DNA of 64,000 nucleotides, taken from assembly GCA_937903155.1 (NCBI GenBank), contig CALCZU010000029.1:4861-68860 (forward strand). Reading direction: 5' to 3'. This document shows positions 37,043 to 48,784 of the stretch, in pieces. Source of the stretch: an uncultured Bdellovibrionales bacterium (GTDB lineage Bacteria; Bdellovibrionota; FAC87; UBA2466). Both the position numbers and the translations under genes were made by a program. Numbering within the stretch: the stretch's first letter is position 1; each line of letters begins with the position of its first letter. The notes under the pieces were generated by a model. That model saw only the letters and a program-made list of their open reading frames with translations. It was not told the DNA's origin and made no database searches.

Positions 37043-37768
37043 TTAATCTTCAAACCGAAAACGCAGAAGCGTCCATACTGCGGTAAAACCATCTGACATC
37101 TTAATTTTTTTTCCTTCTTCTTTCGAACGCGGAGAATACTGGATGGGCACTTCGCGAATTTCATATCCTTGTTTTAAAAGCTTTGCGGTCAATTCATGAT
37201 CCGTTTCAAATCCCGCCGTTTTCACTTTCAAACCTCTTAAAAATTCCATCGGATAAATCTTATAGGCTGTCAGCGTATCGGTCAGCCAATTTCCATAAAG
37301 CATAAAAGTCAAAGAAGAGAGCGCCACTCCCGCCCCGTAAGGGCCAAGACCTTGTTCCGGATGCTTCCCGGGTAAAATAAACGTCTTTTGCTTTTGGTAA
37401 CGGCCCAGCGTACGGCTTCCGTAGACCGCTAACTTTTTTTTGAAATCGAGAGATCTCAACATCGTAAGATAATCGTTGGGATCGTATTCGAGATCTGCAT
37501 CTTGGACCAAAACATAATCGCCCGTCGCTTCCTCAATTCCTCTTTGAACCGCACGGCCTTTTCCTTGATTCGGAACTTGCTGAAAAGTTCGGACGTCCTG
37601 AAACCGACTCGCCTCTCGAAAAGTCGCGTCTTTCGACCCGTCGTCGACGAGAATCACTTCTTTGCTAAAGCCTAAAGTCTCTGTCGGAACCGACAAAACC
37701 CTTTCAAGAAGTTTTGCGATGTACTTTTCTTCGTTATACGCAGGGATGACGATCGAAAGCTTCTTCAT
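37043..37768 (-). CDS. GT2 glycosyltransferase (Dpm1-like)
   Basis: Start MKKLSIVIPAYNEE at 37768. DDGSKD and QDADLEYD motifs. ATGA overlap with the upstream stop. Confidence 0.75.
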   Translation of the reverse strand: MKKLSIVIPAYNEEKYIAKLLERVLSVPTETLGFSKEVILVDDGSKDATFREASRFQDVRTFQQVPNQGKGRAVQRGIEEATGDYVLVQDADLEYDPNDYLTMLRSLDFKKKLAVYGSRTLGRYQKQKTFILPGKHPEQGLGPYGAGVALSSLTFMLYGNWLTDTLTAYKIYPMEFLRGLKVKTAGFETDHELTAKLLKQGYEIREVPIQYSPRSKEEGKKIKMSDGFTAVWTLLRFRFED

Positions 37769-39741
37769 GAATGGCTCCAGCGTGTGGAAACCAATGTCCA
37801 TAAAGATTGAATTCCATCCCAGAACGTCGACTTTTTACCCGCTTTTTTAGTTCTCGGGGCGTATTCCACCGGAAGTTCCAAAATAAACACTTTTTTCTTC
37901 GCAAGTTTGGCAATAATTTCGGTCTCGAGATTCATTCCGCTACTTTTTAAAGCCAGCGACGTTAAAAGCCGCCCTTCAAACGCTTTGATCCCTGTCAGTG
38001 GGTCCGAAACGAAACGATTGTAAAGGACTTGCGAAATCAGACTTAAAATCATCCCGCCGTATTTTCCTACGATAAACCCAAAATAATTATCTCGATAAAT
38101 CTCTTTAATCCGATCATTGAGGTCGATGCACTTGATGGCGCGACTTCCAAAGACGACCTTAAATTCATTCTGAACAATCGCCATCACGACTTTGGGAAGG
38201 TCCGAAACAGAGTACTCTCCATCGGCGTGAAAAAAGACGATGATATTGCCAAGCGCTTGTTCAATCCCGTAGCGAAGAACGTCACCCCTTCCCGAACCTC
38301 TCGGGAGTTCAAAGACACGAATATTGCTTTCGTTTTTCGCGTAGAGCAAAGTCAAGTCAGTCGAGCCCCCATCGACAAAGATAATTTCTTTTGCGAGGCC
38401 CAAAGTCTGAAAATTGAGAAGAACAAGATCATGTAAGACTCTTCTCACCGTTTTCTCTTCGTTGAGTGCCGGAACGATGATCGAGACCATGTAGGGCATG
38501 GCTTTTAGATTCGTCTGAACTTTTTGGTTGGCTATCGATAAAAGCTCATCGACGACTTTGCCACCCAAATGCACTCCCGGGTTTGACTCCCAATTGATTC
38601 CGACATTTTTCTCGTCTTTGAGTAAATCAGATGAGGCCGTGATATAGACTTGGTCCGAATCACCTTCAATTTTTTGAAAAAAACTTTTTGTGATGAGATC
38701 ATTTAATTTAAAAGCGGTTCTACCTTTGCGATTCACATAGTAGACAAGCTTTTGGGTTAATGACTCCACCGTTTCACCCTGAATTTCAAAATCTTTGCGG
38801 ATATTGGCGACAAAAACTTTTTCAGCTACCGTATTAGACGCAATCGATTCCGAGATTTTCTCAGTGAGATATGAAGGAAAAAGCGAAGAGTGTTGAGTCC
38901 CCGGTCCGTAGATAATGAGTTTCGCATCTTTTAAGGCCTGCTCAGCGCGAGGATTGATTTCGACCCGTTTCTCAAGCGTTCGCAACGCAACGGCTTTTTC
39001 TTCAATCGAGAGTTTTTTAATTTGCGAAAGCGTTTCCGTAGATAAGTAGTTTTCGAGCAGGAAAATCTCTTTCACTCGGCTATTGCCTTGTTCACCGACT
39101 AAAGCCGCTTCGTCTTCAAGAATACGGCCATCCTCTTTTAGACCGACCAGGACTCGATTACTGCCATCGGTAATATTTAAGACTTCCGTATCGATTCGAC
39201 AAAGTTTTGAGAAACGCTCGACCGCGCGATTAAAATCTCGATCTTTTAAATACGCTCCTGCGAACGCGAGATTTCCTAATGAGCAATCCGCGTAGTTCAA
39301 AACACCTCGCGAGCTTTTTTTGTACTCCAAGAAACTTTTCAATAGATCGCCGAGCTCCCCTGCACTTTCGACACTGAGATTTAAATAGTGTTCTCGTAGG
39401 AATTTAAGTTCGGGAATTTCACCGCGTTCAAGATTAAGAAGATCTTTCTCCGCCTTTTCGTTCGAAATATCTTTAGGGAAGCGAAACTCAACCAGTTCGT
39501 GAAGGCTTGAAAAAGCCTTTTCATTTTTGGCAATGAGGCGGGAACAATTTTTTCGAACATCGGAAGGCCCGAGCATGCCTGGGATAAAACGCCGTAACAT
39601 TCCCGTCGATAAGCCGTCATCATAAGTATTGACGAGCAAGGTCAGCTGAATCTGTGGATGCTTGGAGAGAACCTCGATAATCGTCCCGGCTCCCCGGCCT
39701 CCACAAAAAAGAACGACATTGAGTTTATTTTGCGTGTTCAT
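37765..39741 (-). CDS. YvcK/CofD-like (UPF0052) domain fused to GT2 glycosyltransferase
   Basis: N-terminal VVLFCGGRGAGT ... VNTYDDGLSTGMLRR matches YvcK ADDGGSSGRLR. C-terminal IIVPALNEE, FVDGGSTD and FFHADGE. Confidence 0.75.
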   Translation of the reverse strand: MNTQNKLNVVLFCGGRGAGTIIEVLSKHPQIQLTLLVNTYDDGLSTGMLRRFIPGMLGPSDVRKNCSRLIAKNEKAFSSLHELVEFRFPKDISNEKAEKDLLNLERGEIPELKFLREHYLNLSVESAGELGDLLKSFLEYKKSSRGVLNYADCSLGNLAFAGAYLKDRDFNRAVERFSKLCRIDTEVLNITDGSNRVLVGLKEDGRILEDEAALVGEQGNSRVKEIFLLENYLSTETLSQIKKLSIEEKAVALRTLEKRVEINPRAEQALKDAKLIIYGPGTQHSSLFPSYLTEKISESIASNTVAEKVFVANIRKDFEIQGETVESLTQKLVYYVNRKGRTAFKLNDLITKSFFQKIEGDSDQVYITASSDLLKDEKNVGINWESNPGVHLGGKVVDELLSIANQKVQTNLKAMPYMVSIIVPALNEEKTVRRVLHDLVLLNFQTLGLAKEIIFVDGGSTDLTLLYAKNESNIRVFELPRGSGRGDVLRYGIEQALGNIIVFFHADGEYSVSDLPKVVMAIVQNEFKVVFGSRAIKCIDLNDRIKEIYRDNYFGFIVGKYGGMILSLISQVLYNRFVSDPLTGIKAFEGRLLTSLALKSSGMNLETEIIAKLAKKKVFILELPVEYAPRTKKAGKKSTFWDGIQSLWTLVSTRWSHS

Positions 39742-40526
39742 CGTTCACTCAAAATTCTTTCGGCCTGTTTTGCATCCTCTAACGTATTGACGCCGAGAGT
39801 TTCTTCTTCTGAATCCAAACGAAGAGTCAGAACTTGATTCATTTTGTCATTAAACTTGGGAAGCAGCGGCAATAAATTATATTCTTCCGTATTCTTCCCA
39901 AGACTTTTTTCAGTTTTTAAGACGTTAAATAGAAATTCTGACTCAAAGCAGAACACGCCGCAATCATTTTCTCCAATTTCTTCGTGAATTTCGCCTTCGC
40001 GCTTTTGTCGAACTCGGATGAGTTTTCCGGCGTCGTCTCTGTCAAAACAGATATAGGGATTTTTTTTCAGATAAGAAGGGAGAGTCAATTTTGCTTTGTG
40101 TTTTTCCAAAAGGCTCTCGCAAAAAATCAAAGTGCTCGAACGGATGGTCACCTGATCTCCCCAAACGACCAAGGAATGAGGAGTATGGACCTTCGACTCG
40201 GCCGTCAAAACGGCGTCCGCCATCCCGCGCGGATAGGTTTGAACCACGTAGTCCACAAAATTTTGCTTTTTTAAACGCACGACTTCAGATTCGATTTCTT
40301 TCAGTCCATTCGGTGAAACGACCAGCACCGTTTTCGCGCAGCAATCTTCTAAAGTCGTCAACAGCCAATCTAAAATACTTCTGCCTAAGATGGGGTAAAG
40401 CGCTTTCGGTTTTGAATAATTTAAGCGCGTTCCCATTCCCGCCATTGGAACAATAGCCGTCCAATCCCGCTTTTGAATGGAATGTTTTTTCCCACGCAAT
40501 TCATTTAAGTTGAAAATTGGATTCAT
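39738..40526 (-). CDS. Sugar-phosphate nucleotidyltransferase
   Basis: AIVPMAGMGTRL. ATGA overlap. Confidence 0.7.
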   Translation of the reverse strand: MNPIFNLNELRGKKHSIQKRDWTAIVPMAGMGTRLNYSKPKALYPILGRSILDWLLTTLEDCCAKTVLVVSPNGLKEIESEVVRLKKQNFVDYVVQTYPRGMADAVLTAESKVHTPHSLVVWGDQVTIRSSTLIFCESLLEKHKAKLTLPSYLKKNPYICFDRDDAGKLIRVRQKREGEIHEEIGENDCGVFCFESEFLFNVLKTEKSLGKNTEEYNLLPLLPKFNDKMNQVLTLRLDSEEETLGVNTLEDAKQAERILSER

Positions 40527-41164
40527 AAAATCTGAAGCAGTTCCGAAAGTTGATAAAACCCTTTTCGAACTTTAGGTTCTCCTTGAGGCAATTGACTGAG
40601 AGTTCCGAGTCTCACAAATACGTCCATGCCCGCGGCTAAGGCAGATTGAATTCCCGATAAAGCGTCTTCGATCACCACACAATTTTGCGGGGTCATCGCC
40701 AGTTTTTCAGCTGCTTTTAAATAGATTTCAGGCGCGGGTTTCGCCTGCTTCACATCTTCTCCGCTTAAAATCGTTTTCCAAAGACCTCGAGTCTTTGAGT
40801 TTTCGACAAACCATTGTACCAGTCTCGAGCTCGCAGAACTTGCAAGCGCGAGTGGGTAGCGCTGGGAGAGAGCAGATAGAACCTCGAAAATTTCTTTTCC
40901 GATGACGGTAAAGTTTGAGAGTTCTTCAAATGCGAGTTTTCGTTTTTTAAAAATACAGGCTTTGAGTTCTTCTTCGGAAATTTCGTATTTGGCTTCTTTG
41001 AAAAGTTTTCTCATTGCGGTTTCGGTATGCATTCCCGCGATTTCGGGATAATCCCAGTTTTTGACGCCATAAGGACCCATTACTTTTCGAAACGCAGACT
41101 CGTGCGCCGGGGTGGAATCTAAAAGCACTCCGTCCATATCAAAAATAACTGCATCGTACTTCAT
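40523..41164 (-). CDS. HAD-IA hydrolase (beta-phosphoglucomutase-like)
   Basis: AVIFDMDGVLLDS. Confidence 0.8.
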   Translation of the reverse strand: MKYDAVIFDMDGVLLDSTPAHESAFRKVMGPYGVKNWDYPEIAGMHTETAMRKLFKEAKYEISEEELKACIFKKRKLAFEELSNFTVIGKEIFEVLSALSQRYPLALASSASSRLVQWFVENSKTRGLWKTILSGEDVKQAKPAPEIYLKAAEKLAMTPQNCVVIEDALSGIQSALAAGMDVFVRLGTLSQLPQGEPKVRKGFYQLSELLQIL

Positions 41165-42153
41165 GAAATCCGTCTGGCCAGGGCTAAAGATTGCCCCATC
41201 TGATAATTCAATGGGAGACGGCTCAAACGCACTTTTTCGCTGACTTTTTTGATTCCATTAAAGAAAGGAAGATACTGCCCCGCTCTCTCGCAGACATAAC
41301 CAAAAGACAAGGTCTGCCAGTAGGGAGAGGTTTCCACTAATTCAAATCCACATTTTGCGAGAAGCTTCTTTAAACTTTTATTGGTGAAGTAAAGTAAGTG
41401 GACATTAAGAAAAAATGGCCACTTTTCGCTTAAAATTTTGCGAGCATAACTTCCATAGTCGGGATAATTCACTACCAGTACGCCATCTTTTTTCAAAAGC
41501 TTCGCGCAACGTTTCAGTTCGTCTTCAGGATGATAAAGGTGTTCGAGAACATCCCAAAGGGTAATGACGTCGAAAGAGCCTTCTTCAAAATTTTGATCCG
41601 ATAAGGTCCCCGGACGCAAATCAACGCCGTAATGTTTTTTCCCCCACTCACACATCCAACGACTGGGTTCAACGCCCACGGCGTCACAGCCAAGATCTTT
41701 TGCCGCTTTTAAAAATGCGCCGGCAGCGGATCCGATATCCAAAACTCTCAGACCCTTCGCCTCTTTGCCCGAATGCGAAAGCACCTTTTTAAGACTTTTT
41801 TTGAAAGTGGCAATCCGGTATTCGTTTTGCGCCGCAAATCGGTCGTCTTCGGCATTCGAGTACGATTCGTAAGCGAGTGATTCTTTGATTCTCGGGTTTA
41901 AATAGGTCAGCTCGCAATCTTTGCAAGTCACTAACTGGTCCCAGAGCGAACTATCGCTTGAGCTGTGGTAAATCTTCAGAAGCTTGTCTTTATTCAAATC
42001 GGACGGATAACGAGCTTTTCGGACGACACGATAGTCGGTCGAGCTGCAAACGGGACACCTCACCGTCTCGGTGAGCGAATCGATTTGAGAGGGAGAACTT
42101 TGAAACAAGGTTTTGTCTTCAGGTTTATTCTGCTTATCGAGCTGCGATTTCAT
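41161..42153 (-). CDS. Class I SAM-dependent methyltransferase with N-terminal Zn-ribbon
   Basis: CPVC...CKDC. Motif I VLDIGSAAGAF. Confidence 0.75.
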   Translation of the reverse strand: MKSQLDKQNKPEDKTLFQSSPSQIDSLTETVRCPVCSSTDYRVVRKARYPSDLNKDKLLKIYHSSSDSSLWDQLVTCKDCELTYLNPRIKESLAYESYSNAEDDRFAAQNEYRIATFKKSLKKVLSHSGKEAKGLRVLDIGSAAGAFLKAAKDLGCDAVGVEPSRWMCEWGKKHYGVDLRPGTLSDQNFEEGSFDVITLWDVLEHLYHPEDELKRCAKLLKKDGVLVVNYPDYGSYARKILSEKWPFFLNVHLLYFTNKSLKKLLAKCGFELVETSPYWQTLSFGYVCERAGQYLPFFNGIKKVSEKVRLSRLPLNYQMGQSLALARRIS

Positions 42154-42215
42154 TGACTTGCCTTATTCTTTTCAATAGTTTTTACCTAATATTTTACCAG
42201 AAGGACACTTAGAAA

Positions 42216-43235
42216 ATGCGTAAAAAGGCTCTGATTACTGGAATTACTGGACAAGACGGATCTTACCTTGCGGAACTTCTCTTGAGCAAAGGCTATGAAG
42301 TGCACGGAATCATCCGCAGATCTTCTTCCATTAATACTGCGCGTCTAGAAAACTGCTACCAAGATCCTCACGAAGAAGAAGTTCGTTTTTTTCTTCACTA
42401 TGGCGATTTAGTAGATGGAAGCTCCCTTGAAAAAATCATTCACACGATTATGCCCGACGAAGTTTACAACCTCGGTGCCCAGAGCCACGTCCGGGTGAGC
42501 TTCGATATGCCGTTGTACACGCTCGATACCGTTGCCATGTCGACGGCGCGAATTTTAGAGGCGTTGCGCCATTTTCGAAATGAAAAACAAATCCGGTTTT
42601 ATCAAGCCAGTTCCTCCGAAATGTATGGAGGCGTAAATCCAACGGCATTGTCTGAAACGTCTAGTTTTGTGCCTCGTTCACCGTATGCTTGCGGAAAACT
42701 TTTGGGTTACTACCTCACAATCAATTACCGCGAAGCTTACGGACTTCATGCTTCGAATGGAATCTTGTTTAATCACGAATCTCCAAGACGCGGCGAGACT
42801 TTCGTCACTCACAAGATTACTCGCGGGCTTTCAAAAATCATCGCGAAGAAACAAAAGAAACTTTACTTAGGGAATTTAGATTCCAAACGCGATTGGGGAT
42901 ATGCGAAGGATTATGTCGAAGCCATGTGGCTCATGCTTCAGCAACCCAAAGGAGATGATTATGTCGTCGCTACGGGAGAAACTCACTCCGTCAAAGAATT
43001 CTTAGACGAAGCGTTTGGTTCGGTTTCTTTGGACTGGAAAAAATATGTCGAGATTGATCCACGTTACTACCGTCCGACTGAAGTCGATGTGCTTCTTGGC
43101 GACTATTCTAAAGCTAAAAAAGTCTTAAATTGGGAACCCAAAACCAAGTTTAAAGAACTGGTACGAATCATGGTCGAGGAAGATTTAAGAAAAGAAGGAC
43201 TCGATCCCGAAAAGTACATGAAATCGCAAAGCTAA
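42216..43235 (+). CDS. gmd: GDP-mannose 4,6-dehydratase
   Basis: [33 protein letters not shown] and the catalytic YxxxK. Confidence 0.9.
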
Positions 43236-44687: not shown

Positions 44688-44741
44688 AATCAACACGCTA
44701 TCCCTTTTGTAAGTTCTGTAAAATCTGTAAGAGTAGTAAAG

Positions 44742-46388
44742 ATGGTTCTCGCCGATTCGCATTTTCTTTTTATTGACTGCCAAACAACGGGTTTGACTGC
44801 CGAAAAAGCCGAAATCATCGAGCTGGGCTGGAGCTTTTCGTTTGATCAGGAAGAAATTCAAACAAGATTAATCCGTCCCGTCCGCCTGGAAAGCATTCCC
44901 AAAAAAGTGCTGACCATGACAGGAATCAACGAAAAAGAACTTGAGTCGGCTGAGAGTGCGGAGATAATTTGGAAACAGTTTCGCGACGCCGTCGAGGCGG
45001 CTCCCGTCCCTCTCACAGCGATCGTCATTCATTACGCTGCCTTCGAGACGCGTTTTTTAAATCATCTTCGAAAAGAATTCGGAGACTCTCCCGTTTTTGC
45101 ACTTCCTACTTTTTGCACCTATCAAATTGCTAAAAAACTTTACCCCGAGCTTCCTGCGCAGACTTTAAGAGCGCTGGGCGGGCATTTTGATTTTTCTCTA
45201 TCTGAGAAAACGCGCGCTTTCGATCATACTCTCGCCACTCAAAAAATCTGGTCAAAACTCTTAAACGAATTAAAAGAACAATCGATTCACACCGTGGAGG
45301 ATCTTCTTTCTTGGAAAAGTCGAAAGGCAAAAAAGCGCAAAATTTCTCGAAAGTATCTAGTCGAACGAGAGACCCGTCTCGGTTTTCCAGAGGGACCTGG
45401 AATTTACGAAATGCATTCCCGCAGTGGAAAAATTCTTTATATCGGAAAAGCTACCTGTCTCAATTCAAGGGTGAATAGTTATTTCCGGCAGAAACATTCA
45501 AAGAGGTCGCGAATCAATGAGCTTATGGCCCAAGTCGTCGAGGTTAAAGTCCGACAAACGCAGACTCCGCTCGAGGCAGCACTTCTCGAGAGCGATCGGA
45601 TTAAGGAAATCGAACCCCCTTACAACCATTCGCTCAAATCGAATTCTCGTAAGATCCTTTTTTTATCTCCTCAATTGGAGGACATTTCCCCGGTGTATGA
45701 ATTTAAACATCCCGTGGGTCCTTTTACCCACGACCAACCTTTTAATGGATTAGAGCGTCTTCTCCACGCGCAAAAAGGAGAATGGGAAGAACTCGACCCA
45801 TTTACAATGAAACATACGCCTGAAGAATTGAAAGATGCCGTCGAAACTCGTCTTTCAGCTTTAGGCTACGATCTCTCAAACTTAAATCTCCTAAAACTCT
45901 TGAGAGCGGGTAAAAAAATTCAACTGACGCCTAGATTCTCGAACGAAGTGACAGATGAAATTACAGAAGAAGTGGAAGAATCCTCCGAAGAATCGGTCGA
46001 AAGAAAATTATCAAACGCAGTTCGAAGTGTTCATGAAAAGCAATGGATCTGCTGGTTGATGGAATCGCGAGTCTTATGGAAACTTGATACGGGAGATTTC
46101 CGTTTTCTCTTACTCCAAAATGGAAAAATTACGGAGTCGGGATTTATAAAATCCCCCGAGCTGTTGGAACCGCTCAAACGCAAACGCTCGCCTCTTCAAA
46201 ACCGGAAGCTCAGAATCGATTTAAAAACTTACGATCGAATGCGTATTTTAATGAGTGAACTTTCAATGTTCGCAAGGCGAGGGATCGAAATCCAAGTTCA
46301 GTTTTCGCCGACGAGAACGTACGCGACAACGCCCAACGGTTCGCCCTCTTGGTGCACGCGCACTTTAAACAGGGAGAGAAATCATTGA
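44742..46388 (+). CDS. DnaQ-like exonuclease domain + GIY-YIG (UvrC/Cho-like) nuclease protein
   Basis: N-terminal FLFIDCQTTGL is a DEDD fold with Q in place of E. The GIY-YIG motif GIYEMHSRSGKILYIGKATCLNSRVNSYF...PYNHSLK follows. The C-terminal 250 aa are unknown. Confidence 0.75.
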   Translation: MVLADSHFLFIDCQTTGLTAEKAEIIELGWSFSFDQEEIQTRLIRPVRLESIPKKVLTMTGINEKELESAESAEIIWKQFRDAVEAAPVPLTAIVIHYAAFETRFLNHLRKEFGDSPVFALPTFCTYQIAKKLYPELPAQTLRALGGHFDFSLSEKTRAFDHTLATQKIWSKLLNELKEQSIHTVEDLLSWKSRKAKKRKISRKYLVERETRLGFPEGPGIYEMHSRSGKILYIGKATCLNSRVNSYFRQKHSKRSRINELMAQVVEVKVRQTQTPLEAALLESDRIKEIEPPYNHSLKSNSRKILFLSPQLEDISPVYEFKHPVGPFTHDQPFNGLERLLHAQKGEWEELDPFTMKHTPEELKDAVETRLSALGYDLSNLNLLKLLRAGKKIQLTPRFSNEVTDEITEEVEESSEESVERKLSNAVRSVHEKQWICWLMESRVLWKLDTGDFRFLLLQNGKITESGFIKSPELLEPLKRKRSPLQNRKLRIDLKTYDRMRILMSELSMFARRGIEIQVQFSPTRTYATTPNGSPSWCTRTLNRERNH

Positions 46389-48784
46389 AAACGAAGGTCT
46401 CTCTGTCAGTCCGTGATTTTGCACTGCCAGTTCCGCGAACGGGAAGTATCGAAACGCATTCCGGCTACGGACGGATGCCCGTAGAGGGGCAAGAAGTTCA
46501 TTTACGAATCCAAGAAAAGCGCTCAAAACAAAATTCGGAATACCAAGCTGAAGTCAAAATTGAGGCTGAGTTCGAACGCGAAGAATACCTCTTTCAAATC
46601 GGAGGGAGAATCGACGGCCTTTTCGCAAGTGATCCTCCCCATATCGAAGAAATCAAATCGGCTTTTAGCATCCAAGAGCTAACGAAAAAACTTATCTATC
46701 AATGGGATCATCCCTATTCACTCCAGCTACAAACCTATGGCTATTTTTATTTCTTAAAACACGGAATTGAACCAAAGCTGACATTTCATTTAGTTTCACT
46801 TCGCAACTTTCAGTCGGAAGACCTAAAAATTGCTTTTAATCGCGCTCAGTACGAGACCTATTTGAACCAGCGTTTAGAGGAACTCGTCAAAGAAACTCGC
46901 GAGAATGAAGCTCGAGCGCTCAAACGAAAAAAAATGGCATCCAAACTCACATTCCCTTTTGAAAACCCGCGAACCGGTCAAACGGATCTGATCGAGAGTA
47001 TCGAAAAGGGATTTCAAACGCACTCACGGATGCTCATTCAAGCCCCGACAGGCCTTGGGAAGACGATCGGTGTACTTTATCCGAGTTTAAAGGAATCGCT
47101 CGAGCGAGGGCAAAAAACGATTTACGTTACTCCCAAAAATAGCCAGCATTCCGTCGCTGAAGACGCGGTTGAGAGAATCCAGCAGGCGGGCGCAAAAATC
47201 AAATCGCTGACCATTACTGCAAAAAGTAAAATTTGTTTTAAGAACGAACCGCTTTGCAATCCCGACTATTGTGAGTACGCAAAAGATCATTACACAAAGC
47301 TTCATGAAAACAATGTCGTGGCTCTTCTTTCAAAAAAGAAAAAACTCACCCATCGGGTTTTCAGAGCCTTGGGCGAAGAGTTTCAAGTCTGCCCTTTCGA
47401 ATTGCAATTTGAAGCCGCTCAGGATGCGGACGCCGTGATTTGCGATTACAACTATGTTTTCTCCCCGCGAGCAAGTCTGGGTAGAATGGGCGTACCCACC
47501 CTAGGACAAACGGGAAAACCCAATTTAGTCATTGATGAAGCGCACAATCTTTTATCGCGAGCCATGGGATATTACTCGCCCGAACTTTCGACTTACGTTT
47601 TAGAAAAAATGCGTTTCTCCGTTCGCGAATTACCCTTACGATTTCGTTCGGATGCTGAAACGCTTTTAAATGACTGTCTACAGACGGTTAGCTCTTGCCG
47701 TCCTGAAGGTTCTACCCAGAGTGTTTTAATCGATCCTCCGAGGGCTATCTTCTTAGAACAAGAGGAGGATTTACGGAATTTTCTGTCTCGATATCTAGAG
47801 TCGGATGTCGAGATTCAACCACGCGATGTGGTCCTGCGACTCGTTTACTATTGGTCTCAGTTTACGGCCGCACTGGATTTTGTGGCAGAACCGAAAAGAC
47901 CTGAGTTTTTCACTTTTTTTCAACCGGAAAGAGTCGGCAATGGCGGCACCATTAAAATTGCTTGCTGTGATGCTTCGGAGATGCTCAAAGCCTGTTACGA
48001 CGAGTACGATCAGGTCGTGGGCTTTTCAGCAACTTTAAAACCTTTTCATTATTATGCAAAACTCTCTGGACTCGAGCTTGAAAAAATCAAGGTGGCCGAG
48101 TTTCAATCGCCGTTTCCTAAGACCAATCGCAAGGTTTTGATCATTCCTGAGATCTCCACAAAATATTCCAACCGAGAAAAAAATTACAAAAAAATTTCGG
48201 AAGTGATTCACAAAATTTCTCAAGTGAAACCTGGGAACTACTTTGCTTTTTTCCCCAGTTTTGAATTCCTTGAAAAAGTTGCCGCAGAATTTCGGGCACC
48301 CGAAGGTATCGAAGTGATCCGCCAACAAAAAGACATGAAAGCAAGCGAGATTGAGGGCGTCGTAGACCACTTGAAATCTCGGGTGCGTCCCACGATTGTG
48401 TTTGCGGTTCAGGGAGGCGTGTTTTCAGAGGGCGTCGATTACCCCGGAGAGACAATTATCGGAGCCTTTGTGATTGGTCCCCCTCTTCCGAAGTTTGATC
48501 TCGAGCGCGAAAAAATGCGCGAGTTCTATGACAAAACTTATCAATCTGGATTTGAATACGCCTACAGCTATCCCGCAATGGCGAAAGCCGTCCAATCCGC
48601 GGGACGGGTCATCCGGTCCGAGACAGATAGAGGGCTGATTGTTCTCATGGACAGTCGTTTTATCGAAATGGGCTATGCCTCTTCCATGCCGACCGATTGG
48701 TTTGAAACGAGCCCCCGCGAGCTTGTTTCCCAGGCTATCTTAAAAGAAGTAAAGGATTTCTGGACCGATCCGTTGACACCGTAA
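46385..48784 (+). CDS. RecB-like PD-(D/E)xK nuclease domain fused to XPD/DinG-family Fe-S helicase
   Basis: N-terminal GGRIDGLFASDPPHIEEIKS and QTYGY. Walker A QAPTGLGKT. A Fe-S cluster with four Cys (CFKN, LCNP, YCEY, VCPF). DEAH box VIDEAHNL and motif VI QSAGRVIR. TTG at 46385 after GGAGAG, overlapping the upstream stop; alternative starts are 46349 and 46475. Confidence 0.75.
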   Translation: MKTKVSLSVRDFALPVPRTGSIETHSGYGRMPVEGQEVHLRIQEKRSKQNSEYQAEVKIEAEFEREEYLFQIGGRIDGLFASDPPHIEEIKSAFSIQELTKKLIYQWDHPYSLQLQTYGYFYFLKHGIEPKLTFHLVSLRNFQSEDLKIAFNRAQYETYLNQRLEELVKETRENEARALKRKKMASKLTFPFENPRTGQTDLIESIEKGFQTHSRMLIQAPTGLGKTIGVLYPSLKESLERGQKTIYVTPKNSQHSVAEDAVERIQQAGAKIKSLTITAKSKICFKNEPLCNPDYCEYAKDHYTKLHENNVVALLSKKKKLTHRVFRALGEEFQVCPFELQFEAAQDADAVICDYNYVFSPRASLGRMGVPTLGQTGKPNLVIDEAHNLLSRAMGYYSPELSTYVLEKMRFSVRELPLRFRSDAETLLNDCLQTVSSCRPEGSTQSVLIDPPRAIFLEQEEDLRNFLSRYLESDVEIQPRDVVLRLVYYWSQFTAALDFVAEPKRPEFFTFFQPERVGNGGTIKIACCDASEMLKACYDEYDQVVGFSATLKPFHYYAKLSGLELEKIKVAEFQSPFPKTNRKVLIIPEISTKYSNREKNYKKISEVIHKISQVKPGNYFAFFPSFEFLEKVAAEFRAPEGIEVIRQQKDMKASEIEGVVDHLKSRVRPTIVFAVQGGVFSEGVDYPGETIIGAFVIGPPLPKFDLEREKMREFYDKTYQSGFEYAYSYPAMAKAVQSAGRVIRSETDRGLIVLMDSRFIEMGYASSMPTDWFETSPRELVSQAILKEVKDFWTDPLTP

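Follow-up and report, generated by a model that had tools for sequence, protein, structure and literature searches.

The DNA analysed here is a 64,000-nucleotide stretch (the window) of contig CALCZU010000029.1 from an uncultured Bdellovibrionales bacterium, and its element of interest is a gene on the forward strand that encodes a fusion of a nuclease with a helicase. A first-pass annotation, made from the sequence alone, had described the product as a RecB/Cas4-type PD-(D/E)xK domain placed N-terminal to an XPD-type helicase. This reading recognised a real nuclease-helicase fusion: profile searches, the Pfam matches of relatives and an AlphaFold2 model compared by Foldseek all support it. 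The annotation had also called the architecture one that it could not place. Here it erred, for the arrangement is that of the published EndoDinG subgroup (PMC11981726, 2025; PMC13650095, 2026), to which the protein very probably belongs. The gene and the signal that precedes it are as follows.

46372..46378, plus strand: Shine-Dalgarno-like GGGAGAG, six bases 5′ of the TTG start, read from the sequence.
46385..48784 (stop codon included), plus strand: EndoDinG gene, 799 amino acids, TTG start, from the list of open reading frames (ORFs), the public protein P0001 and the match to 9KQH_A.

The EndoDinG subgroup was named by Cheng 2025 (PMC11981726, section 3.7), with a protein of Bdellovibrio bacteriovorus HD100 as its representative; its defining features are a PD-(D/E)xK endonuclease at the N-terminus of a DinG-like helicase and a canonical iron-sulphur (Fe-S) domain (PMC13650095). 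Bdellovibrionales are among the EndoDinG lineages listed by Li et al. 2026 (PMC13650095), whose crystal structure of Finegoldia magna DinG (FmaDinG) is PDB entry 9KQH. The whole window protein matches this chain (9KQH_A) with E=1.6e-92, over residues 1-772 of the query and 1-747 of the chain. All EndoDinG features that can be looked for in sequence were found, namely the PD-(D/E)xK head, a superfamily 2 (SF2) core, a four-cysteine Fe-S domain, an Arch domain and full-length homology. We are thus confident in placing the window protein in the EndoDinG subgroup, among the bacterial DinG/XPD-like helicases, as a nuclease and helicase in a single chain. The fusion itself is not new, because it was named in 2025 and characterised structurally and biochemically in 2026; the lineage, too, had already been listed for the family.

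What is known of the activities comes chiefly from FmaDinG. It is a single-stranded DNA endonuclease that prefers Mn2+, cuts end-blocked substrates and favours DNA over RNA, and it is also a 5′-3′ helicase (PMC13650095). With ATP it digests into duplex DNA, an ability lost in the ATPase-dead mutant D378A; its nuclease is abolished by H40A, E54A, R73A, D75A, E88A and K90A, and a gate loop (residues 18-28) is proposed to control the entry of DNA (PMC13650095). Nuclease and helicase activity of the B. bacteriovorus EndoDinG is mentioned as unpublished data in a review (PMC11981726). In the alignment H40, E54, R73, D75, E88, K90 and D378 of FmaDinG correspond to H39, E56, R75, D77, E89, K91 and D384 of the window protein, so that every residue whose mutation kills the FmaDinG nuclease has a counterpart.

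Details of the nuclease part are given below. Conservation counts refer to a MAFFT alignment of 70 diverse full-length family representatives taken from 50%-identity clusters.

46385..46939, plus strand: predicted N-terminal PD-(D/E)xK (RecB/Cas4-like) nuclease domain, residues 1-185, from the AlphaFold2 model, Foldseek and profile matches.
Within 46385..46939, plus strand: long linker helix, residues 153-185, part of the nuclease domain model.
46445..46465, plus strand: probable flexible gate loop, residues 21-27, with a predicted local distance difference test score (pLDDT) <50, assigned from FmaDinG loop 18-28.
46499..46501, plus strand: H39, putative metal-site histidine (FmaDinG H40), 70/70, aligned to FmaDinG.
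46550..46552, plus strand: E56, putative metal ligand (FmaDinG E54), 69/70 with one gap.
46604..46618, plus strand: G74-R75-I-D77-G78, the 'D' motif with the substrate-binding arginine (FmaDinG R73, D75); G74 and D77 70/70, R75 69/70.
46646..46657, plus strand: E88-E89-I90-K91, the '(D/E)xK' motif (FmaDinG E88, K90); E89 and K91 70/70, E88 66/70.
46724..46738, plus strand: Q114-L-Q-T-Y118, the RecB-family QxxxY motif; Q114 and Y118 70/70, Q116 10/70.

Seven positions of the domain (H39, G74, D77, E89, K91, Q114 and Y118) are invariant among the 70 representatives, and the conservation of the D and ExK motif positions is far beyond chance. These two motifs fall within the peptide GGRIDGLFASDPPHIEEIKS (residues 73-92, coded by 46601-46660 on the plus strand), where the first-pass annotation had assigned them, and D77, E89 and K91 bear the assignment out. 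It had also recognised a QxxxY motif, which is indeed present, but in the wrong register: the QTYGY that it named (residues 116-120) lies two residues away from the conserved motif, QLQTY (114-118), which aligns with QVKCY of FmaDinG and has both ends invariant.

Evidence for the fold comes from profiles, from structure and from homologs. The absence of any PD-(D/E)xK or Cas4 match in the first ∼200 amino acids had been named as a refutation, but such matches were found: a profile (A1) built from 23 diverse N-terminal domains hits the nuclease domain of 9KQH (E=1.6e-22) and Cas4 SSO0001 (PDB 4IC1, E=2.5e-5). Pfam, run on 23 family members, reports PDDEXK_1 in nine and Cas_Cas4 in three. The AlphaFold2 model of residues 1-190 has a mean pLDDT of 93; the sole segment with pLDDT <50 is residues 21-27, which coincides with the FmaDinG gate loop and is by analogy the probable gate loop here. 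Foldseek matches of the model in the PDB are 9KQH, Cas4 SSO0001, RecE, AddAB, EXO5, ACE1 (Argonaute-associated and Cas4-like), AdnAB, lambda exonuclease and MGME1. On model and sequence comparison the predicted fold of residues 1-185 is that of the RecB/Cas4/lambda-exonuclease branch of the PD-(D/E)xK superfamily. The domain lacks an Fe-S cluster of its own, of the kind typical of Cas4, AddB, EXO5 and Dna2, because the first cysteine of the protein is C284 and residues 1-283 contain none.

Three points weigh against the identification or limit what may be read from it. Pfam finds no match in the window protein's own residues 1-204, and the domain assignment rests on profile, structure and homologs. 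R10, a candidate substrate-binding residue, is variable across the family (36/70). Identity to the Firmicute enzyme is ∼30%, as judged from Clostridiaceae/Bacillota loci, and metal and base preferences may differ.

It might be supposed that the nuclease-like head is inactive, a DNA-binding or regulatory module comparable to the head of pExoDinG, a pseudo-exonuclease. Nuclease domains of DinG-like proteins have often degenerated, pExoDinG being an example (PMC11981726), and the DEDD domain encoded by the gene directly upstream of EndoDinG appears degenerate (see below). Set against this, none of H39, E56, D77, E89 and K91 is missing, all five vary little or not at all in the family, and the homologous domain of FmaDinG works as an endonuclease and loses this activity when the same residues are mutated (PMC13650095). 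We regard an inactive head as very unlikely.

The existence of the nuclease domain in the cell depends on where translation begins. The ORF with the N-terminal region is open through to the stop at 48784 on the plus strand. A public protein (P0001) of 799 amino acids is 100% identical to the window product, and among the matches listed 119 other homologs, at 60-69% identity, cover 97-100% of the 799 amino acids, nearly all at least 99%. TTG 46385 is favoured as the start because of these homolog lengths and the Shine-Dalgarno-like site, and comparison with the homologs, which begin at the equivalent place with ATG, GTG or TTG, supports it as the likely start of the EndoDinG gene. The mechanical ORF opens at another TTG, 46349, which is 12 codons further 5′ (46349-46384) and inside the preceding gene; automated callers could pick either TTG.

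A start further downstream would remove the nuclease. In this case, one that the first-pass annotation had itself raised, translation would begin at the internal in-frame ATG at 46934 (M184, 'MASKLTF') and yield a plain XPD/DinG helicase; TTG is the weaker codon, and the blank Pfam result over residues 1-204 of the window sequence speaks for such a start as well. The evidence from relatives runs the other way. Met is not conserved at position 184, where Leu is the commonest residue in the 70-sequence alignment, whereas residues 1-183 are conserved and include catalytic residues invariant in the 70 relatives. When codons 1-184 were compared with three related loci (L001, L002 and L012), the differences were in each instance mainly at third positions; against L001 codon positions 1/2/3 account for 52/40/119 of them, and of the codons changed 72 are synonymous and 69 non-synonymous. 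The GGGAGAG site precedes the TTG, and the starts of homologs, like the public gene calls of 799 amino acids, fall at the TTG-equivalent place. A search with residues 1-195 against 1.84 billion cluster representatives (E<=1e-3) matched 424 families, of which the full-length ones are ∼760-900 amino acids long with the match at the N-terminus; the shorter matches are probably fragments. The domain is thus found almost only at the N-terminus of ∼800-amino-acid proteins, and all homologs carry it. We reject the later ATG, which seems to us scarcely credible, and on these sequence comparisons the N-terminal region is translated. Promoter and terminator scans gave nothing above shuffled expectation.

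The remainder of the protein is the helicase.

47042..47065, plus strand: Walker A APTGLGKT with K226, K226 70/70; Pfam DEAD and ResIII.
47234..47392, plus strand: Fe-S domain with C284, C291, C296 and C336, each 70/70; Pfam DEAD_2.
47534..47545, plus strand: DEAH box (Walker B), D384-E385-A-H, D384 and E385 70/70; D384 aligns with FmaDinG D378.
48206..48700, plus strand: motor domain 2, Pfam Helicase_C_2 (PF13307, E=1.1e-38).

Pfam matches in this part are DEAD, ResIII, DEAD_2, HBB (the XPD Arch) and Helicase_C_2. The HBB match has E=4.4e-07 and 30.2 bits, with a cut-off of 30, and the Arch region aligns unbroken to 9KQH. C284, C291 and C296 align with FmaDinG C282, C289 and C294, and K251, K280 and K282 are, as read from the alignment, counterparts of its DNA-binding K249, K278 and K280. 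Both the four-cysteine Fe-S helicase and the XPD-like character claimed in the first-pass annotation hold: the best solved relatives after 9KQH are archaeal XPDs (E ∼1e-42), compared with E=5.5e-5 for E. coli DinG, and by sequence the helicase core (residues ∼190-780) is XPD-like and belongs to SF2. NCBIfam ranks rad3, YoaA and DinG highest, and none of the three reaches its equivalog cut-off. The family is classed as 'DinG-like' although its core is far nearer to archaeal XPD (Thermoplasma Ta0057) than to E. coli DinG.

The helicase core raises the question of whether the protein serves an anti-phage or CRISPR system, either as a CasDinG-like type IV effector or as a helicase fusion of a Cas4-like adaptation nuclease. 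The PADLOC model 'typeIV_DinG; CAS-IV-A associated' matches residues 181-779 with E=6.7e-112, the upstream protein's DEDD domain matches a Cas-associated DEDDh model, and Cas4 is the nearest stand-alone match of the nuclease fold. The PADLOC match, however, spans only the generic helicase core. There are no CRISPR-like direct repeats in the whole 64-kb window, and the neighbours examined (∼37.8-55.6 kb) are sugar/polysaccharide genes, an MFS transporter, a DeoR-type regulator and a protease, with no match to a Cas family. In relatives the flanking genes vary by locus and bear no defence-island signature. The Fe-S module of CasDinG is degenerate (PMC13650095, Introduction), in contrast to the four invariant cysteines here, and Cas4 has its own four-cysteine cluster (PMC11981726), whereas no cysteine precedes residue 284 in the window protein. 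A role in defence is accordingly highly improbable in our judgement.

The analysis establishes the identities of the domains, the intactness of the catalytic residues, the start codon and the pairing of the genes; what the enzyme does, which metal it prefers, how cutting is tied to unwinding and what role it has in vivo are inferred. Taking the protein as an EndoDinG enzyme, a mechanism can be drawn by homology to FmaDinG. The metal site would consist of H39, E56, D77 and E89; K91 is so positioned that it would touch the scissile phosphate, and R10 and R75 may serve in substrate binding. The long helix would connect the nuclease to the XPD-type SF2 motor, which comprises K226, the DEAH box (384-387), the presumed four-cysteine [4Fe-4S] cluster and the Arch. 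By analogy, the motor would load on a 5′ single-stranded tail and move 5′-3′ with ATP, the duplex being split at the wedge formed by the Fe-S and Arch domains, and the displaced 3′-ended strand would be threaded through the gated loop (∼residues 18-28) into the H39/E56/D77/E89/K91 site. There endonucleolytic cleavage would follow, with Mn2+ as the probable preferred metal. In the cell the enzyme probably processes damaged or branched DNA, and in the closest clade a GIY-YIG (Cho/UvrC-like) nuclease would be produced alongside it from a translationally coupled upstream gene.

The genes that precede EndoDinG, in the window and in its relatives, fall at these positions.

44742..46388, plus strand: upstream partner gene, 548 amino acids, RNase_T/DEDD plus GIY-YIG plus a C-terminal region (Pfam, NCBIfam).
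L001 4303-5859, L047 2824-4380, L048 3406-5004, L049 3385-5004 and L050 1328-3004: orthologs of the upstream gene.
L002, L012, L017, L018, L020, L023-L029 and L034 (12 Bdellovibrionota, one Elusimicrobia): loci with a TIGR04122 gene upstream of EndoDinG.

The upstream gene ends in a TGA stop (46386-46388) that overlaps the EndoDinG TTG. All six loci examined from the closest clade have this gene immediately 5′ of EndoDinG (the window together with L001, L047, L048, L049 and L050, the five others being 66-69% identical), and the stop/start overlap takes the form NTGA at four of the six junctions, while the outer flanks vary. Among the homologs examined at 63-64% identity the DEDD/GIY-YIG neighbour is absent. 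No family matches the C-terminal ∼230 amino acids of the upstream protein. Its GIY-YIG motifs look intact (GIY, YIGKA, R243, E283 and N295 in the six-ortholog alignment A2). Its DEDD domain reads D-C-Q at Exo I (D12-C-Q14, 44775-44783) rather than D-x-E, and F-E at Exo II (F101-E102, about 45042-45047) rather than F-D, both as aligned with E. coli DnaQ; at Exo III, read by eye, no Asp follows the His (H162...T166-Q167, about 45225-45242). These changes are invariant in the six orthologs, and the sequence suggests a pseudo-exonuclease domain beside an intact GIY-YIG.

Clustering of the ORFs from 46 genome loci plus the window identified no neighbour universal to EndoDinG loci; most of the recurrent clusters are shadow ORFs inside the helicase gene itself. 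The real recurrent neighbours are an acetyltransferase-looking ORF in a few Firmicute loci, judged by eye, and an MBL/beta-CASP 'ligase-associated DNA damage response exonuclease' (TIGR04122, E ∼1e-115, above cut-off), which lies directly upstream in 13 of the 46 loci and ends at or overlaps the EndoDinG start (in L025, for example, the overlapping gene is at 4847-5998). The window contains no homolog of this exonuclease, and the clustering found no common neighbour for the Geobacter-group, Nitrospirota and Firmicute loci. A ligase-associated operon was considered and rejected, since in L025 neither a ligase nor an Lhr helicase is found near the exonuclease.

Regulation of the gene pair by the SOS response was likewise discarded. 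The sequence TTACNNNGTAA, which we take to be the Bdellovibrio-type LexA box, is not present near the promoter of the pair, and its 26 occurrences in the window, against 17.7±4.4, are not clearly above chance. Just 5′ of the ATG of the upstream gene, within 44708-44739, TGTAA occurs three times and AGTAA once at an exact spacing of 9 bp (44708, 44717, 44726 and 44735); this repeat is not kept upstream of the orthologs in L001 and L047-L050. Further away, at about 37765-43235 and just upstream of the MFS transporter, is a sugar-nucleotide/polysaccharide cluster that includes a GDP-mannose 4,6-dehydratase, a methyltransferase, a HAD hydrolase, a nucleotidyltransferase and a CofD-like/glycosyltransferase fusion, and that appears unrelated to EndoDinG.

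EndoDinG is recurrently and tightly coupled to other nucleases of repair, in one clade to a GIY-YIG protein and in another to the ligase-associated MBL exonuclease, and this provides a lead toward a role in the processing of DNA damage. Neither the neighbours nor GIY-YIG are mentioned in the EndoDinG papers (PMC11981726, PMC13650095); that a second nuclease gene accompanies EndoDinG is new, though of modest weight. It is conceivable, if rather doubtful, that in the Pseudobdellovibrionaceae-like clade of the window EndoDinG and the coupled DEDD/GIY-YIG protein form a two-protein repair module which, together with the MBL/beta-CASP pairing, would point to a bacterial excision or fork-processing pathway built from an XPD and a nuclease. 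For annotation the consequence is plainer: the window gene and many relatives now labelled 'ATP-dependent DNA helicase' or 'ERCC-2' are better called EndoDinG-type nuclease-helicases.

Among known systems the closest are FmaDinG and the HD100 EndoDinG, which share with the window protein the order of nuclease, motor domain 1 with Fe-S and Arch insertions, and motor domain 2. With FmaDinG it also has in common the catalytic H/E/D/E/K set, the substrate arginine, QxxxY, the Fe-S cysteines, Walker A and DEAH. From FmaDinG it differs in lineage: the window protein belongs to a Bdellovibrionota/Geobacter/Nitrospirota branch with 55-69% identity between members, its closest relatives in that range being from Pseudobdellovibrionaceae, Bacteriovoracaceae, Oligoflexia, the Geobacter group and metagenome-assembled genomes of Nitrospirota, whereas Bacillota and Clostridia members are ∼30% identical to it.

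Neither protein nor locus has all the defining features of Cas4, CasDinG or ExoDinG. Cas4 SSO0001 (4IC1) is the best stand-alone match (E=2.5e-5 by profile, E=1.7e-7 by Foldseek) and has the same RecB-like PD-(D/E)xK fold, with motifs equivalent to D77, E89-x-K91 and Q114-xxx-Y118; the window nuclease differs in lacking the four-cysteine cluster, in its fusion to a helicase and in having no CRISPR/cas context. From CasDinG of type IV CRISPR, which accompanies csf/cas5-8 genes and an array, the protein is set apart by the four invariant cysteines of its Fe-S module, and its locus by the lack of an array and of any Cas-family match in the neighbours examined. ExoDinG (the DinG of S. aureus and B. 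subtilis) likewise has a nuclease at the N-terminus of a DinG-like helicase, and couples DNA degradation to 5′-3′ translocation (PMC13650095, Introduction), but the nuclease there is a DEDD 3′-5′ exonuclease rather than PD-(D/E)xK, and in the window the DEDD-like domain is encoded by the separate upstream gene.

AddAB, AdnAB, RecBCD and Dna2 likewise mount a RecB-family nuclease on an ATP-driven motor that feeds it unwound single-stranded DNA; AddA and AdnA are among the Foldseek matches, and the functional parallel to AddAB-type nuclease-helicases is drawn in PMC13650095. The motors of AddAB, AdnAB and RecBCD are of superfamily 1 (UvrD-like or SF1B) with the nuclease C-terminal, unlike the SF2 XPD-type motor here; Dna2 too has an SF1-type motor, with its nuclease N-terminal to the helicase. 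Unlike both the AddAB type and Dna2, the window protein carries its Fe-S cluster in the helicase rather than in the nuclease.

For the helicase core, with its HBB (Arch) and DEAD_2 matches, the nearest counterpart outside the subgroup is archaeal XPD (Thermoplasma acidophilum Ta0057, PDB 4A15 / 2VSF), which is without a fused nuclease. Archaeal XPD partners instead with a separate nuclease, Bax1. Archaeal XPD-Bax1, and eukaryotic XPD with XPG/XPF, are the analogues that we propose for a pathway in which EndoDinG would act together with a second nuclease.

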